From Stegostoma tigrinum (Eukaryota): a stretch of 64,000 nucleotides of DNA. The stretch is taken from positions 5,084,001 through 5,148,000 of the forward strand of contig NC_081396.1 in NCBI RefSeq assembly GCF_030684315.1, read 5' to 3'. The notes beneath the pieces were generated by a model. It searched no databases. It was not told where the DNA came from and worked only from the letters and a program-made list of their open reading frames with translations. Positions within the stretch are counted from its first letter, which is position 1. The number at the start of each line of letters is the position of its first letter. Shown one piece after another: positions 14,513-59,052 of this stretch. The translations under genes and the position numbers were made by a program.

Positions 14513-15418
14513 TCAGCCAGTGAGTTGACCGAGTGAATGCTTTTCCCCGGTGTGAACTCGCTGATGTCTCAGCAAGATGGTTGACTGACCGAACGTTTTC
14601 CCACAATCAGAGCAGATGAATGGCTTCTCTCCAGTATGTACTCGTTGGTGTGTTAGAAGTCTCGATGAGCAATTGAATGCTTTTCCACATTCAGAACAGG
14701 TGAATGGTCTCTCCCCACTGTGAATTCGCTGGTGTATCAGCAGATTACATGAGCGATTGAAGCCTTTTCCACATTCAGAACATGTGAACGGTTTCTCCCC
14801 AGTGTGAATTCGCTGGTGTATCAGCAGTTTAGAAGAGTAATGGAATCCTTTTCCACATTCAGAACAGGTGAATGGTCTCTCCCCAGTATGAATTCGCTGG
14901 TGTTTCAGCAGGCTGGATGATGAAGTGAATCCCTTCCCACAGTCAAAGCATGTGAACGGCTTCTCCCCAGTATGAATACGCTGGTGTATCCGCAGGTCGG
15001 ATGACTGAGCGTATGCTTTCTCACACACTGAGCAGGTGAATGGTCTCTCCCCAGTGTGGACCCGCTGGTGTATCCGCAGGTGGGATGACTGCGTAAATCC
15101 CATTCCACAATCAGAGCAGGTAAATGGCTTCTCCCCAGTGTGACTGCGTTGGTGAGTTTCCAGTTCAGATGGGTAAAGAAATCCCTTCCCACAATCTTCA
15201 CATTTCCACAGTCTCTCACCAGTGTGACTGCGTCGGTGAGTTTCTAGCTGGGATGGGTAAAGAAATCCCTTCCCGCAATCCCCACATTTCCACCGTCTCT
15301 CCCCAGCGCGACTGCGTTGGCGTTTGGACATTACAGGTGAATATTCACAGACTCTTCCACACACAGATGATACGTGTTTCTCCCTGGGGTGAAAGGTGCT
15401 TTTCCCTTCAACGTTCAA
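14513..15418 (-). CDS. C2H2 (Kruppel-type) zinc-finger protein terminal exon, 9 intact fingers, no KRAB visible
   Basis: Open frame with nine CxxC...HxxxH fingers joined by TGE(K/R)(P/L) linkers. The ORF-track start is TTG; the first ATG is at 15331. After finger 9 a deletion shifts the frame, and decayed fingers continue to about 14320. Confidence 0.85.
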
Positions 15419-15774
15419 GATTCTGAAATAATTAGGTTATGATAAACAGAGTGACTGTCGGATCTGGATCTGGTTTCATTTGAAGTCTCTAATTGCAAAA
15501 CTCCATTTCAAACGTAAAACAAATTAGGAGAATGAGAAGAAAATACAAGTTGTGAAACAGAGATCAGTTAACCCGGTCGGTTGTGGATATGACAAAGGGA
15601 AAATGCTGGATTATCATTAAAACCGAACTGTCCTTCAGGGAAGGGAACCAGTCAGTGTTTGCTCAAAACTGCAGAAAGAGTTAGAGGTGGGAGAGGCAGC
15701 ATGAAGAAGTATTTGAGAGATCTACAACTCAGCCCTGTTCCCGTTTTCTCCCCATACCTTCAATACCTCCAGAA

Positions 15775-34670: not shown

Positions 34671-37600
34671 CAGAAGGGCGGGAAAAAGAGTGGAAGGGCG
34701 ATAGTCATTGGGGATTCAATTGTAAGGGGAGTAGACAGGCGGTTCTGCGGTTGAAAACAGGACTCCCGAATGGTATGTTGCCTCCCAGGTGCACAGGTCA
34801 GGGATGTCTCCGATCGGCTGCAGAACATTCTGAAGGGGGAGGGCGAACAGCCAGTTGTCATGGTGCATATAGGCACCAATGATATAGGCAGAAAATGGGA
34901 TGAGGTCCTACAAGCAGAATTTAGGGAGTTAGGAGCCAAGTTAAAAAGTAGGACCACAAAGGTAGTAATCACAGGATTGCTAACAGGGCCACGTGCTAGT
35001 CAGTGCAGAAATGAAAGAATAGCCAGGATGAATGCGTGGCTTGCGAGATGGTGTAGGAGGGAGGGGTTCAGATTTTTGGGACATTGGAACCAGGTCTGGG
35101 GAAGGTGGGACTAATAGAAGTTGGACAGTCTACACCTGAACCGGACTGGAACCAATTTCTTTGGGGGTGCTTTTGCTAATGCTGTGGGGGAGGGTTTAAA
35201 CTAATGTGGCAGGGGGATGGGAACCAAATATTGGATAGAAAAGAGGTAGAAAAATAAAGCCTGTAGGGAACTAGATAATGGAGTCAGTCTGACTAAAGGG
35301 AATAGTAGTCGGGAAGCAGATGATGAACACAAAGGGACAGGTGGTCTGAGGCTTTAATGCGAGAAGTGTAGTAGATAAGGCAGATGAGCTTAGGGCTTGG
35401 ATCGGTACCTGGAAGTATGATGTTGTTGCTATTACTGAGACTTGGTTGAGGGAAGGGCATGACTGGCAACTAGTTGTCCCAGGATATCGATGCTTCAGGC
35501 GGGATAGAGAGGGAGGTAAAAGTGGCGGAGGAGTTGCAGTAATGGTCAAAGACGATATCACAGCTGGACTGAAGGAGGGCCCAGTGGAGGACTCAGGCAG
35601 TGAGGCAATATGGGTAGAACTCAGAAATAGGAAGGATAGAGTAACAATGTTGGGGCTGTACTACAGGCCTCCCAACAGTGAGCGTGAGATAGAGGTACAA
35701 ATATGTAAACAGAAAATGGAAAGGTGTAGGAGAAACAGGGTGGTGGTGATGGGAGATTTTAATTCTCCCAACATTGACTGGGATTCACTCAGTGTTAGGG
35801 GTCAATATGTAGCAGAATTTGTAAGGTGCGTCCAGGAAGGTTTTCTAGAGCAGTATGTATGTAGTCCAACTCGGGAAAGAGCCATCCTGGACCTGGTGCT
35901 GGGGAATGAACCCGGCCAGGTGGTTGATATTACAGTAGGGGGCTACTTTGGAAATGGCGACCACAATTCTGTAAGTTTTACAACACTCATGGACAAGGAT
36001 AGGAGTGGTCCTAAAGGAAGAGGATTAAACTGGGGGAAGGCCAACTATACCAAGATTCGGCAGGGTCTGAGGAACGTAGATTGGGAGAAACCGTTTGAAA
36101 GTAAATCCACATTTGATATGTGGGAGGCTTTTAAGGAGAGGTAGATTAGCGTGCAGGAGAGACATGTTCCTGTGAAAATGAGGAATAGAAAAGGCAAGAT
36201 TAGGGAGCCATGGATGACAGGTGAAATTGTGAGACTAGCCAAGAGAGAAAAGGAAGCATACATGAGGTTTAGGCGACTGAAGGCAGACGAAGATTTGCAA
36301 GAATATCGGGAATATAGAGCGAATCTGAAATGAGGGATTAAGAAGGCTAAGAGAGGACATGAGATATTGCCAGCAAACATGGTTAAGGAAAATCCCAAAG
36401 CCTTTTATTCATATATAAAGAGCAAGAGGGTAACTAGAGAAAGGATTGGCCCACTTAAGGACAAAGAGGAAAGTTATGCGCTGATTCAGAGAACATGGGT
36501 GACATTTTTAACGAGTACTTTGCATTGGTATTCACCAAGGAGAGGGGCATGATGGATGTTGAGGTTAGGGATAGATGTTTGCTTAGTCTAGGTCAAGTTG
36601 ACATAAAGAAGGAGGAAGTGTTGGGTATCCTAAAAGACGTTAACGTGGACAAGTCCCCAGGTCCGGATGGGATCTATCCCAGGTTGCTGAGGAGAGCAAG
36701 AGAGGAAATAGCCGGGGCCCTAACAGATATGTTTGCAGCATCCTCAGACACGGGTGAGGTCCCAGAGGACTGGAGACTTGCTAATGTTGTCGCCTTGTTT
36801 AAAAAGGGCAGCACTGATAATCCAGGTAATTATCGACTGGTGAGCCTGGTGTCAGTGGTAGTGAAGCTACTGGAGAAGATACTGAGGGATAGGATCTATT
36901 CCCATTTGGAAGAAAATGGGCTTATCAGTGATAGGCAAAACGGTTTTGTGCAGGGAAGGTCATGTCTTACCGACTTAATAGAATTCTTTGAGGACATGAC
37001 AAAGTTGATTGATGAGGGAAAGGCTGTAGATGTCATATACATGGACTTCAGTAAGGCGTTTGATAAGGTTCCCCATGGCAGGCTGATCGAGAAAGTGACG
37101 TCACATGGGGTCCTGGGTGTGCTAGCTAGATGGATAAAAAAAAAACTGCCTGGGCAACAGGAGACAGAGGGTAGTAGTAGAAGGGAGTTCCTCAAATTGG
37201 AGACCTGTGGTGTTCCACAGGGATCTGTGCTGGGACCACTGTTGTTTGTAATATACGTAAATGATCTGGAAGAAGGTGTAGATGGTCTGATCAGCAAGTT
37301 TGCTGATGACACTGATATTGGTGAAGTAGCTGATATTGAAGGGGACTGTCAGAGATTACAGCAGAATATAGATAGACTGGAGAGTTGGGCAGAAAAATGG
37401 CAGATGGAGCTCAATCCGGGCAAATACGAGGTGATGCATTTTGGAAGATCAAATTGAAGGGCCAACTATACAGTGAATGGAAAAGTCCTAGAGAGAATCG
37501 ATGAACAGAGAGATCTGGGTGTTCAGGTCCATTGTTCCCTGAAGGTGACAACGCAGGTCAATAGGGTGGTTAAGAAGGCATATGGCATGCTTTCCTTCAT

Positions 37601-38216
37601 TGGGCCGGGTATTGAGTACAAGAGTTGGCAGGTCATGTTACCGTTGTATAGGACTTTGGTTCGGCCACATTTGGAGGACTGTGTGCAGTTCTGGTCGCCA
37701 CATTACCAAAAGGATGTGGATGATTTGGAGAGGGTGCAGAGGAGGTTCACCAGGATGTTGCCTGGTATGGAGGGTGCTAGCTATGAAGGGAGGTTGAGTA
37801 GATTAGGATTATTTTCATGAGAAAGGTGAAGATTGAGGGGGCACCTGATTGAGGTCTACAAAATCATGAGGGCTATAGACAGGATTGATAGCAAAAAGCT
37901 TTTTCCCAGAGTGGGGGACTCAATTACCAGGGGTCATGAGTTCAAAGTGAGAGGAGGAAAGTTTAAGGGAGATATGCGTGGAAAGTTCTTTACACAGAGG
38001 GTGGTGGGTGCCTGGAACACATTGCTAGTGGAGGTGGCAGACACAGACACGTTAGCGTCTTTTAAGATATATTTGGACAGGTACATGGATGGGCAGGGAG
38101 CAAATGGACACAGACCGTTAGAAAATAGGTGACAGGTTAGACAGAGGATCTTAATCGGCGCAGGCTTGGAGGGCCGAAGGGCCTGTTCCTGTTCTGTAGG
38201 TTTCTTTGTTTCTTTG
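34671..38216 (+). mobile_element. Near full-length CR1-type LINE (ORF1 SGNH esterase; ORF2 APE plus RT), inactivated
   Basis: ORF1: VIGDSIVRG..CLPGAQVRDVS..HIGTNDIG. ORF2: ITETW, YRPP, GDFN, DHN, KSPGPDG, DFSKAFDKVPH, PQGSVLGP, FADD. A few stops and frameshifts; (TTTCTTTG)2 tail. Confidence 0.95.
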
Positions 38217-46256: not shown

Positions 46257-47159
46257 TTAACGTTTGAAGCATCCTGTTAGAGTGGTGAAAGGACACATCA
46301 GCACTCTTTTTAGCTCCTCTCGAAACTTTTTCTGAGTTACTGCATAGATGAAAACATTGTTGCAGGAACTGATTATTTCGAGCATGTTGGTTGTTTCTTG
46401 GAGGATGTACTGTGGATCTTTGAAGTTCAGGCTGCTGATGTAGCCCTCATGTGCAAGCAATCGATAGAGGAAGCGACCTATATAAGTGGCCCACAGGAGG
46501 AGGAAGCTGAGGGAGATTGCGAAGAGCAGGGCTATGGATCTTTTGCGGTTTGCAATCTCTGGATCTTCACAATCCTCAGTGCGTCGAAGCCTTTTGCGTG
46601 CTCTGCTGGCCAATACAATGTGTCTGACTGTCAGGGCATTGAGCAGAAGAATGAACAGGAATGGGAGAAATGGGGCTAAGACTCGGTCGAGCCAGTGCAA
46701 AGCCTGCCAGGCAGGTGAAGTGTGGAATGTGGGCTTGATATCACAGAACCAGGGCATCCCTTCTAGAAAAAAAAAAGGGCTGATAAATGAAATAGAAAGG
46801 GGTGTTCTTGACACAGCTTAGGGCACAGGTCACTCCTAACACCAGTGATGCAAATTTCTTCGTACAGTATATGTTCTTCAATCTCTGGCAACAGATGGCC
46901 ACAAAACGATCAGTTGTGAAGGCTACAGTCAGCCAGACAGAGCAATCTCGGGCTGCATACACCAACACCGTATTTAGACTGCAGCCAGGAGTAGTGGAAA
47001 GAATACTGTTGCTGAAATAAATACGGCCAATCCTGTTCAGAATTCCACCTGTGATGATGACAAGGAAATCACTCACTGCTATGGCCACCAGGTAGTAAGT
47101 GACACACTCCGAGAGCCCGCATTTCCCTTGGGATAGAATTATAATCGCCAGCAAGTTGG
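46257..47159 (-). CDS. GPR139/GPR142-like class A GPCR, exon 2 (one frameshift in a T10 run at 46767-46776)
   Basis: ANLLAIIILSQGKCGLSECVTYYLVAIAVSDFLV, SVWLTVAFTTDRFVAICC, LPFLFILLLNALTVRHI, RKRSIALLFAISLSF and NVFIYAVTQKKFREEL. Acceptor tttcacAG at 47161-47160. Confidence 0.88.
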
Positions 47160-48446
47160 CTGTGAAAGATACCAAGGGAGGAATATATCACCAAGTGAAC
47201 TCGAAACACAAGCTATAGCTTCATGAAATCTTATTGCAGTACCCGTCCAGATGCATCCAGTAGTATCGGCACGGATTAACTATTCCAAAGCCTTTTGCAG
47301 TTGCTCTGGAGCCAATGTTGGAAGCAAACATTTCTCCACAGATGGGAAATCCCCAACCCTTCCAGAGACAAACGAATTTGTATGACCACTGAGACTACAC
47401 GAACAGCTTGCTACCAATTTAAACACTTTGAGCCATTTGCTGCCTGATCTGTTATTCATAACAAGTCTCATACATTCATGACCTCTATACTTGCTCATCT
47501 ACGTTGGCATTCCATCCACCAACTTCAGGGTTATAATAGTCTCATGCATCCTGATTTTGAAGTAATGGTGCAATCTTCCCACGATATCCGTAAAATTGTA
47601 TAGCCAGTTGTGATCACTGCAACCGTAATTCTGGTATGATACCAATCTTTAACTCAGTAGCAGTTATGAATTGATATGTAGAATTTCGGATCTGCATTAT
47701 TCAATTCCTCAACTGATCTTGTCCGCTAGTCTATTTCGAGACATGTTTATAATATTTCTGAGATCAAGGATCTGGGTATCACATTCGATATCTCCTTCCG
47801 TACTTCACAGTCAAATTTATTTGTAAAACATGCTAAGTGGCACCCCCAACAAACAAACATCAATAACTGAAGATACAAACAAACTCTATTACGAAGTCAA
47901 TCTCCTTGCGAGAATGAGCAACAGACGTCTATGGATGAAAAGGTTTGATTAACAAAAGTACAAGTAAAATTTACAACACCTATCAGGACAAAGCCAAAGT
48001 ATAATCTCTCCAAGTTCTTGCACTGCCAGTCTCATTTCAAAAGTCTCCATGATTAATTTCGCTGACCACATCAACATGTTAAGTATTCATGCAATATGCT
48101 ACTGATGTTATTCTTAACTAGAAACATTAAACACGCTGTGTGAGGCTTTTTTTGCGACATGGAGATAATATCTAATTATAGCTGAATTGAGCAAATTTCA
48201 TTCAGGGCGATTCATATTTCAGCAATCTAATATGTGATATTTTTATAATCACGTTGCGTAATGTATTGAATAATTTCGTTTCAGATTCCATACCACAAGT
48301 GCAAATAATGTTCTATAACTTACCACTGTACCGTCTAGTCACATGGTAGAGTGCTGAATGTTGGAAAAAATTCGGATTGATCCTAAAAGTGGAGAAACTA
48401 AATTAATTCATCTTCATAAAATGACGTACTGAGATCAGTTACTGAC

Positions 48447-56641: not shown

Positions 56642-57270
56642 TTTCAGAAAAAAATACGGTTGATGGTTATATGATAACGAGTTACCAAGTTTGATCTTCG
56701 TGTTTCCTGTTTGCATTGTGCACACAGTAGAAATGAACGTTCAGACCGCACGACTCTGAGGTAGCTTTCAATGACAAATGAAGTTTTTAGGGTTAATGCT
56801 GAGACAGCTCTCTTGTTACCCCAAGGCGTATCAAAGTATGGAATAACGTTTCAGTACAACGTGTGTTTTAAATTCCCTGAAATCACTGGGTACCGCAGTT
56901 GAAGGAAAACGTGTAGAAAATCCTTGGATAGCAATGTAATTCCGGGAGGGGACATCGACCCGTTTTGATCGAGCGCGATCCAGTCAATTTGTGTTGAGAA
57001 AATGTACCTCGCAATAACCAGAAGTCGCCACTGGAGGGCATTGTGAATCTGGATATAAGTTGAAAGTGAGGCGGGGAGGGAAACCACAGACTGTGGGAGC
57101 AGCTGTCGGTGTGAAGACTTGGTACTGAAACAGAAGCACCAAGACACAGCTTCTTCCATAACTTTGAAAGAAGGCGGCTCTGAATTAGACTTGAAGGGAT
57201 CACTTTTCTAATTATTAGCTCGTGTTTCTCAACAGAATTCTGTGCACCTTACTTTTCAAGTAAGTTGCCA

Positions 57271-57605
57271 ATGTCTCAAATTTACAGAGTTCTTTTGTTG
57301 CTTTCCACTCTAATCTACACAGAAGTGACCGGCGAAGATGAAGTAATGCAACTTCCTCAGTGGACAACTGTTAGCGAAGCAGGAATCGCTTCCATGAACT
57401 GCTCTACAACCACAAGATTTAGGGTGGTGCATTGGTACCGGCAACTCACGAATCTTCCACCCCAGTATCTGGTGATGGCCAAAACAAAAACTGAACAAGG
57501 CGAGAGGATCACCGCTTCAATCAATACAGACTACAAACACAGTACTCTAACGGTGAAAGATGCAGCTCTTAACGACTCTGCCATCTATCTCTGTGCTGCT
57601 GATGG
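57271..57605 (+). CDS. Intact T-cell receptor V gene segment (alpha/delta type), leader in frame with the V domain
   Basis: MSQIYRVLLLLSTLIYTEVTG/EDEVMQLPQWTTVSEAGIASMNC...VVHWYRQ..PPQYLV...HSTLTVKDAALNDSAIYLCAAD. Canonical Cys, Trp and D-x-A-x-Y-x-C; no stops; immediately followed by an RSS. Confidence 0.9.
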
Positions 57606-57644
57606 CACAGTGTTACAAACAGAAGGAGAGGCTAGACTAAAACC
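57606..57644 (+). promoter_or_regulatory. Recombination signal sequence, 23-bp spacer
   Basis: CACAGTG (57606-57612), 23-nt spacer, ACTAAAACC (57636-57644; 8/9 match to ACAAAAACC). Confidence 0.92.
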
Positions 57645-59052
57645 TCGACTGATTGGGAGGGCAACGATGATGAATTTGAAGTAGCAACCTTACTAATTTA
57701 GGCCTCTATAATTCAATATTAACGTGAATGAAGACAAAAAGAAAAGAAAAACAGATGTAAAGAGCATGAGAAGTGAAGAGAATTAGAAATCTCGGCGAAG
57801 ATAAAGTAAGAGTGCGCATATACTAATATCAGTGATAGAAAACCATAAAGAAAAAAACAGAATTAACATTACATACCTGTAAGTGACTGAATGGTGAGAA
57901 ACTATTGAAAGAAAAATGGAAGAAAGTGGAAAATACGAGAGTGATGCAAAGAGGTAAAATATTCATTCAAATTAAATCATTAGTCAACCATGAAGGTAGT
58001 AAAGTGGCCTTTCTTTTAACACAATTCACATTTTATTAATAGTTACAAAATCCAAATTCGTCAAAAACGTTTCCTAAATGCTGATAATTGGATGTCATCT
58101 CATTCACCAAGTTGTTCATTTCCTTGTGGTGCAACATTACTAGATACCCAGCCAGCAGACGCTGTAGTCCCACTCACATCAACTCTTGCAGCCTCGTTGT
58201 GTCATCCTCACCACTTGCCTTCCCATTTATTTTTGTGTCATTCATAAACGTCACAGAGTAATTATTTTCCTTCAGGATTCGTGTTCATGCGTATCTCTGC
58301 TGTCTCACCATCCCCATTCAAACTTTGAGAATAAAAAACTGCACATTAATGTCTTCCTTAAAATTTTCATTTGTGGAATTTGGGTGCTGCAAGAAATGCT
58401 GGCATCCAGTTGTAATACACTTTGAAACTGCAGCAGTGAATCGTCTTTTTCAGCTGCTGCCAAGTGTCTAGTATAGATACTGTAGTTGCATTGCATGGCA
58501 GAAAGCAAAATTTGAGAAACGTCAGTTGCTATGAATCTTACCAGAAAATGCAACAAAACGACATTCCCAGCTACAGTTTAAGTAATTGACATTCTGGTTG
58601 TTTAATCACCTCATGGTTATGTCCAAATCTCTCACACCAACTGACCGCCTGCATGGATTGAAGGGAACTCTCAAAATCAGAGGCCAGCTCTGTTATCTGG
58701 GGAGCTCCAGTTCTGATACTCGAACATGAACTGTGTTTCTTCTCTGATTTTGGCTCTTGGCAAATAAAACTATTAAATGTCAGAATTAGTTTGATGTTTG
58801 TTTAAAACACCATGGTATGGTGAATGAATTCATTGTGCTCCTTTCCGACCCTGCCCAATGAAATGGAGGTCAATGGAACTTGAAAAATGAATTGAAGAGC
58901 GAAGGCGTTCAAACAGCATTGGCTGTCCCCTGATGTCTTTGTCAACAATGAAGCAATTGGCAGAGATACAGAAATTACTTGACCCCTTTCTTGACTAAAA
59001 CAAATTCAGCTTCAACGAGTTCTGCTCACACTCACTGTGATCTTGTGGAACT

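Follow-up and report, generated by a model that had tools for sequence, protein, structure and literature searches.

The window analysed here is a stretch of 64,000 nt of the Stegostoma tigrinum genome (G000:C55:5084001-5148000), and the only V segment within it begins at the ATG at 57271 (Table 1). From 57271 to 57605 the sequence translates with no stop into a 21-residue leader-like peptide followed directly by a V domain, and the frame remains open up to the recombination signal sequence (RSS) at 57606. Elsewhere in the window, an exon with a C2H2 zinc-finger array lies at 14513-15436 (- strand), and a LINE-type element with a reverse transcriptase domain, fragmented over several frames, at 35350-38132 (+ strand). 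A rhodopsin-family GPCR sequence at 46257-47187 (- strand) is spread over two reading frames with the break at a T run, which points to a pseudogene or an assembly indel.

Table 1. Features of the V segment and of its upstream region, in window coordinates.
Feature	Position	Strand	Basis
TATA-like motif (putative), inside a promoter-like block common to the subfamily	57052..57059	+	Motif scan; 217-219 nt 5' of the ATG
E-box-like CAGCTG (putative promoter element)	57100..57105	+	Sequence; similar element in most paralogues by alignment
GTAAGT donor-like site	57260..57265	+	Sequence; 11 nt 5' of the ATG
Leader (predicted signal peptide, 21 codons)	57271..57333	+	Continuous with the V exon; translation, homologous leaders, codon-position variation
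AG at phase-1 position, equivalent to the leader-intron acceptor site of other V genes	57321..57322	+	YAG there in 8/8 aligned family copies
TCR V-alpha/delta-type V domain	57334..57605	+	Pfam V-set, solved-structure matches, tree
23-spacer recombination signal sequence	57606..57644	+	Motif scan; heptamer start position

The initial annotation had proposed that this ATG opens a 21-residue signal-like peptide fused to a complete V domain, and the stop-free frame, a Pfam V-set match to the V domain (43.7 bits; cut-off 26) and the landmark codons, named as in IMGT (Cys 57400, Trp 57433 and Cys 57592), bear this out. The leader carries Arg6, the core VLLLLSTLIY and V-T-G at residues 19-21; signal peptides are typically cleaved after small residues, and cleavage is predicted after Gly21. 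Over its best 8 residues the hydrophobicity reaches 2.75; split leaders, which had been preselected at values of at least 2.0, have a median of 2.82. The proposed CACAGTG-23-nonamer signal was also found, with the heptamer at 57606-57612, a 23-nt spacer and the nonamer ACTAAAACC at 57636-57644 (one mismatch). With up to one mismatch allowed, the window contains no other 23-RSS, and 100 shuffles yielded none at all. Counted from the second Cys codon, the heptamer begins at position 15, which is also the most frequent value in the bamboo shark TRAV rows looked at. TCR alpha chains make up most of the best matches in solved-structure searches with the V domain, which, together with its place among TRA/D-type V genes in the tree and its location on the scaffold of C-alpha and C-delta, agrees with the alpha/delta identity suggested at the outset. 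The predicted structure of the segment, built on a 6-row alignment, had a mean pLDDT of 45.5 and was left out of the evidence.

Contigs from three of four public runs cross 56700-58000 unbroken and with zero differences, and the fourth run covers 56782-58000 in two pieces; these runs represent at most two samples of one study, possibly the source of the assembly itself. Since the run contigs span the region and agree with the layout, an assembly slip is an unlikely cause of it, and this candidate was rejected. A processed V(D)J retrocopy was ruled out because the RSS is intact, and an Ig light or IgH V identity was ruled out by the tree.

Upstream of the ATG, the promoter-like block of the segment can be aligned across paralogues and includes the CAGCTG that we take to be an E-box. 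The TATA-like motif was absent at 217-219 nt 5' of the ATG in the four other copies scanned, and a survey of TATA distances was too noisy to place the transcription start. There is no ATG between 57002 and 57271, the nearest upstream one being at 57002, and no plausible leader exon emerged from a scan of about 1.1 kb upstream. When the 366 nt upstream were searched as DNA, the window itself was the only match. The GTAAGT at 57260 is specific to this copy, as it is not kept in four aligned paralogues; splicing from it to the AG at 57321-57322 would excise 63 nt, the ATG included, and leave no other in-frame upstream ATG. The initial annotation had passed over this site, 11 nt before the ATG, as it had the conserved subfamily and the presence of the closest expressed relative on D-beta/J-beta/C-beta.

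On the - strand of scaffold C55 lie C-alpha (844 kb), the J-alpha array (about 850-916 kb) and C-delta together with its J segments (about 947-961 kb); no D-delta was located. C-alpha was classed through the protein record P0002, whose C region carries the C-alpha primer peptide given in Table 7 of PMC5931798. Next come V genes (0.97-2.27 Mb), then C1-domain genes accompanied by IgH-type V genes (2.9-4.85 Mb) and a second cluster of TCR V genes (5.14-5.81 Mb), of which the window segment is the first member; further V genes are found at 9.1-9.64 Mb. The elasmobranch antigen receptor complex described in PMC12227049 likewise has alpha/delta V exons between IgH clusters, and in the catfish TRAD locus the V genes are all opposite to C (PMC8656973). 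The V genes examined on C55, IgH-type included, are on the + strand in 59 of 79 cases. The window V (+ strand) is about 4.2 Mb from the J-alpha/C-alpha block (- strand) on the same scaffold, and these orientations imply that joining would invert about 4.2 Mb. Under the 12/23 rule, RAG in developing T cells would pair the 23-RSS of the window with a 12-RSS J-alpha (or D-delta) of the same scaffold. Such a V-J join by inversion would retain the IgH-type clusters in between. Splicing of the mRNA would be limited to J-to-C, and the leader would then be removed at the predicted site. Of the initial description as a functional, rearrangeable V, the intact frame, the RSS and the locus stand as observed, while function in Stegostoma tigrinum, with the expression and rearrangement of this copy, is what we infer from them.

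The unsplit leader is a trait that the segment shares with a subfamily. Our survey of V genes covered the best candidates in the fetched stretches and not the whole genome, and 100 of 106 V hits were annotated, the six 5'-incomplete ones being dropped. A heuristic scan of these 100 genes gave a split leader in 51, only an in-frame ATG in 10 and neither in 39. In four intact unsplit copies (the window segment, C55:1849474, C55:5576721 and C55:5615558) the ATG precedes the first Cys by exactly 43 codons, with neither a stop nor an indel, and no conserved or plausible leader exon was found within about 1.1 kb upstream of them. Altogether 11 family copies were seen, seven of them damaged in the leader or V and one more with no recognisable RSS. 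Four members of the family (C55 at 1.73, 5.36, 5.58 and 5.80 Mb) are each accompanied, at a distance of 1.7-4 kb, by a member of one other V family, which suggests duplication as a pair.

In a tree of 104 rows (97 columns, midpoint root), the four intact copies, three damaged ones and the protein records P0002-P0006 form a 12-row clade (support 99/91), whose sister is the split-leader gene C55:1285007 (95/88). The tree comparison suggested in the initial annotation places the window V among TRA/D-type V genes, apart from beta, gamma and IgH V (90/95). Support is weaker in a second tree of 44 rows, both for the unsplit clade (89/90) and for the clade with its sister (90/71), and this tree pairs the split-leader sister with the elephant shark V P0035 (97/89). 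The annotated N-terminus of P0035 is unusually long and may include a read-through intron, so that its gene structure would be informative on the origin of the leader.

Two protein records from other animals, P0003 and P0002, are V(D)J-joined with J spliced to C, and both start with a homologous leader (19 and 11 of 21 residues identical to the window, respectively); P0003 is 82% and P0002 62% identical to the window V. P0003 is the sister of the window V in the 104-row tree (98/90). P0002 is joined to J-alpha/C-alpha and P0003 to beta segments; neither is the window copy itself. Within the clade the two records sit on separate branches, each next to unsplit copies from the genome, so the layout is likely older than the species split. 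The nearest named relatives of the window V are Chiloscyllium punctatum proteins (67-69%), and a like leader occurs in four gene models of this species and in P0013 (1,001-bp contig). The C. punctatum relatives are intact and adjoin an orthologue of the V gene next to the window V. The bamboo shark TRAV table lists an intron of 0/0 for many genes, all with a 180-nt span; this is apparently a default value, and the table is therefore uninformative on single-exon leaders. Among the family copies, mismatches in the leader DNA are most frequent at the third codon position (0.24/0.26/0.45), and pS exceeds pN in all six pairs, the pattern of variation of a coding sequence.

From what was observed directly, namely the reading frame, the RSS, the locus layout, the paralogues and the use of the leader in two related records, we conclude that the window segment is very probably an intact germline shark V of the alpha/delta type, with its leader in the V exon, likely translated from the ATG at 57271 with no leader intron and belonging to an old subfamily. 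The unsplit leader had been claimed from this sequence alone, and the paralogues, the two rearranged and spliced records and the coding-type variation now speak for it. The main doubt is that the apparent leader could be the polypyrimidine tail of an ordinary intron, the true leader exon lying upstream and splicing to the AG at 57321-57322. The two expressed records that support the unsplit reading are known as protein alone, the YAG at the old acceptor in all eight copies could still serve, a strong donor motif lies just 5' of the ATG, and the scan for split leaders, being heuristic, left 39 of 100 V genes unclassified. True intron tails can look similar: of 51 split-leader V genes taken as a control, 17 have a tail that is hydrophobic in frame and two also have an in-frame ATG in it, so that the appearance of the sequence is suggestive but not decisive. 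The paralogue C55:5512290 has a 1-nt deletion just 3' of the ATG, which would be tolerable under a spliced model, and yet retains an open V frame and a perfect RSS. We nevertheless consider a hidden leader exon improbable, since no conserved one precedes any of the four intact copies, both spliced records start with the leader peptide, and the peptide is kept across species, with coding-type variation and zero indels in the intact copies.

The layout could also be real and the window copy a silent relic, either stranded 4.2 Mb from J beyond the IgH-type clusters or spoiled by the donor at 57260, and we regard this as slightly less probable still. The number of damaged copies in the family, including the one with no recognisable RSS, the large distance to J-alpha and the restriction of the donor motif to this copy are compatible with such a fate. 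An open frame, the full set of V landmarks, a near-perfect RSS and a rearranged, expressed record with 82% identity argue against it, as do the bamboo shark relatives, which are intact beside the same neighbouring V. The unsplit, intact reading of the segment is thus retained.

As to how the unsplit leader arose, the split state is likely ancestral, because the sister gene and most of the classified genes are split. We give about an even chance to a recruitment in which an ATG arose in the 3' end of the old leader intron and this end became the signal peptide, the old first exon decaying into 5' UTR. The leader DNA of the family resembles the intron tail of the sister gene, which comes first of 51 and, when the scoring was varied, stays within ranks 1-5 of 51 in 16 of 18 settings. 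YAG is present in 8/8 copies, against an AG end in 12 of 51 first exons, and the sister's first exon ends in TTG. In three of eight copies MAFFT pairs the sister's start, ATGGAA, with an identical hexamer that lies well 5' of the new ATG. Compared with the sister's promoter, the 120 nt preceding the new ATG rank 27-48 of 51 in 17 of 18 settings. Other comparisons weigh the other way: over the whole 380 nt the sister ranks 29 of 51, with a score that 32 of 200 local shuffles reached; the promoter-offset peak falls at 150 nt and not at 180 nt (14 offsets tried); a profile of the family's upstream DNA missed the sister and found no split-leader relative; and under several settings exon 1 of the sister comes out at ranks 2-7 as well.

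Plausible, but somewhat less likely, is that the leader intron was lost precisely, for instance through recombination with a reverse-transcribed copy, the mechanism put forward for opossum TRMVj (PMC2275272). The distance from ATG to AG is 52 nt (17 codons plus 1), inside the range of 37-70 nt of first exons in the survey, the usual 11-nt second part follows the AG, and CAG is the commonest exon-1 ending (10/51). Such a loss is at odds with the comparisons to the sister gene, which comes 48th of 50 once its intron is removed and whose leader peptide, compared with the fused leaders, comes 48th of 51. We weakly favour recruitment of the intron tail over precise intron loss.

The record P0003 raises a separate question, as its V maps best to the window (80%; next best at most 55%, among the best 150 of 243 candidates, which were those scored) while its other parts match scaffold C59. 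Every residue of its J agrees with the J at C59:6168495, the best match of its C is C59:6154799 (78%), and the junction Asp-Arg corresponds to frame 3 of the D-beta at C59:6172505. C59 is of TRB type, with a V leader like the published beta-V5 primer peptide, and C5 has a V matching the gamma-V3 peptide; solved-structure searches left the beta-like C exons unclassed, and the D, J and leader evidence classed them. A D-J-C set, the third, with nine V genes lies at C59:6155-6272 kb, and two opposed D-J-C clusters lie at C51:672-767 kb, as in the bamboo shark table. The V genes of these TRB-type loci group apart from the window V in the tree, which argues that the latter is not a TRBV. No close copy of the P0003 V was found on C59 or C51 among the best 150 of the 243 candidates, or in about 190 kb around the C59 locus.

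On balance, P0003 is probably, if by no wide measure, a true interlocus rearrangement of the window V lineage onto D-beta-J-beta, and this is the likeliest reading of the record. In addition to the matches just given, the C. punctatum relatives are on a 264,593-bp contig with the orthologue of the neighbouring V of the window, a contig different from the multi-megabase TRB scaffold in the table of PMC10322711, and functional interlocus chains are known in humans (PMC2191748). P0003 is, however, a single record known as protein alone. It is possible that it is a PCR or cloning chimera, as the V-beta genes of C59 also end in Cys-Ala-Ala and would allow a template switch, or that it derives from a lineage-specific copy, the source species holding a copy of this V inside TRB. 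C55 and C59 could also be unjoined parts of one chromosome, and the search scored only 150 of 243 candidates. In table S1 of PMC12227049, a white shark V in the antigen receptor complex is labelled 'TCRbV'. A wider scenario, in which a shark V-alpha lineage turned an intron polypyrimidine tail into a signal peptide, other local V genes followed independently and the lineage is regularly used in trans on D-beta-J-beta, appears unlikely as a whole.

The split leader is described in PMC12227049 as canonical for all antigen receptor genes. The window segment is like the elasmobranch TRAV/TRDV genes of that study in its V-alpha/delta domain, its 23-RSS and its position among V genes between IgH clusters on the TCR alpha/delta chromosome, but unlike them it has no split leader. 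The initial annotation mentioned single-exon leaders in some avian V-alpha subgroups, and these are in print for chicken TRAV1 and most TRGV1, an exception that PMC10972964 calls unique. As in chicken TRAV1, leader and V domain share one exon across a family with 23-RSS; unlike it, the segment comes from a cartilaginous fish and belongs to a minority subfamily nested beside split-leader shark genes, which suggests an origin separate from that of the chicken genes (the tree was built with no chicken sequences). Opossum TRMVj also lacks the leader intron but is joined to D and J in the germline (PMC2275272), whereas the window segment is unjoined, keeps its RSS and has no J motif 3' of V. Interlocus chains of human V-gamma with (D)J-beta (PMC2191748) and of shark IgH-V with TCR-delta (PMC12227049) place a V on the D/J/C of another locus, as P0003 appears to do; unlike in those chains, its V is alpha/delta-type and the recipient is TCR beta, in one record. 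We found no report of unsplit TCR leaders in sharks, or of V-alpha on D-J-beta in sharks, in the literature searched, in which subscription journals and key shark papers are thinly covered.

A conserved shark subfamily that does without a leader intron would make this intron dispensable at the base of the jawed vertebrates, and more than one loss of the intron is likely. Genes of this kind would be missed by annotation rules that treat a V gene with no leader exon as a pseudogene, such as those given in PMC12529555. If the beta-chain record is true, alpha/delta V genes enter the TCR beta repertoire of sharks.

Other V genes of this genome depart from the usual layout as well. Those at C60:7.85-8.60 Mb (L014, L021, L025 and L027) have V exons already joined in frame to a J-like motif and no RSS, as in non-rearranging VJ-type genes. 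A second clade with a seemingly unsplit leader comprises C55:9365879, 9444633, 9529581 and 9637892 (L015, L024, L073 and L136); an in-frame ATG lies 40 codons before the Cys in three of the four copies, the junction AG is missing in three of four, the leader is less hydrophobic and an upstream leader exon was not found. A single clade of this group and the main family was not rejected by the AU test (p 0.457). At C55:5578464 (L069), whose relatives are split, the upstream leader exon is kept and the acceptor AG is lost, and the open intron tail contains an in-frame ATG and a hydrophobic stretch. Judged by these features, this gene may represent an intermediate step in leader recruitment, or else a pseudogene.
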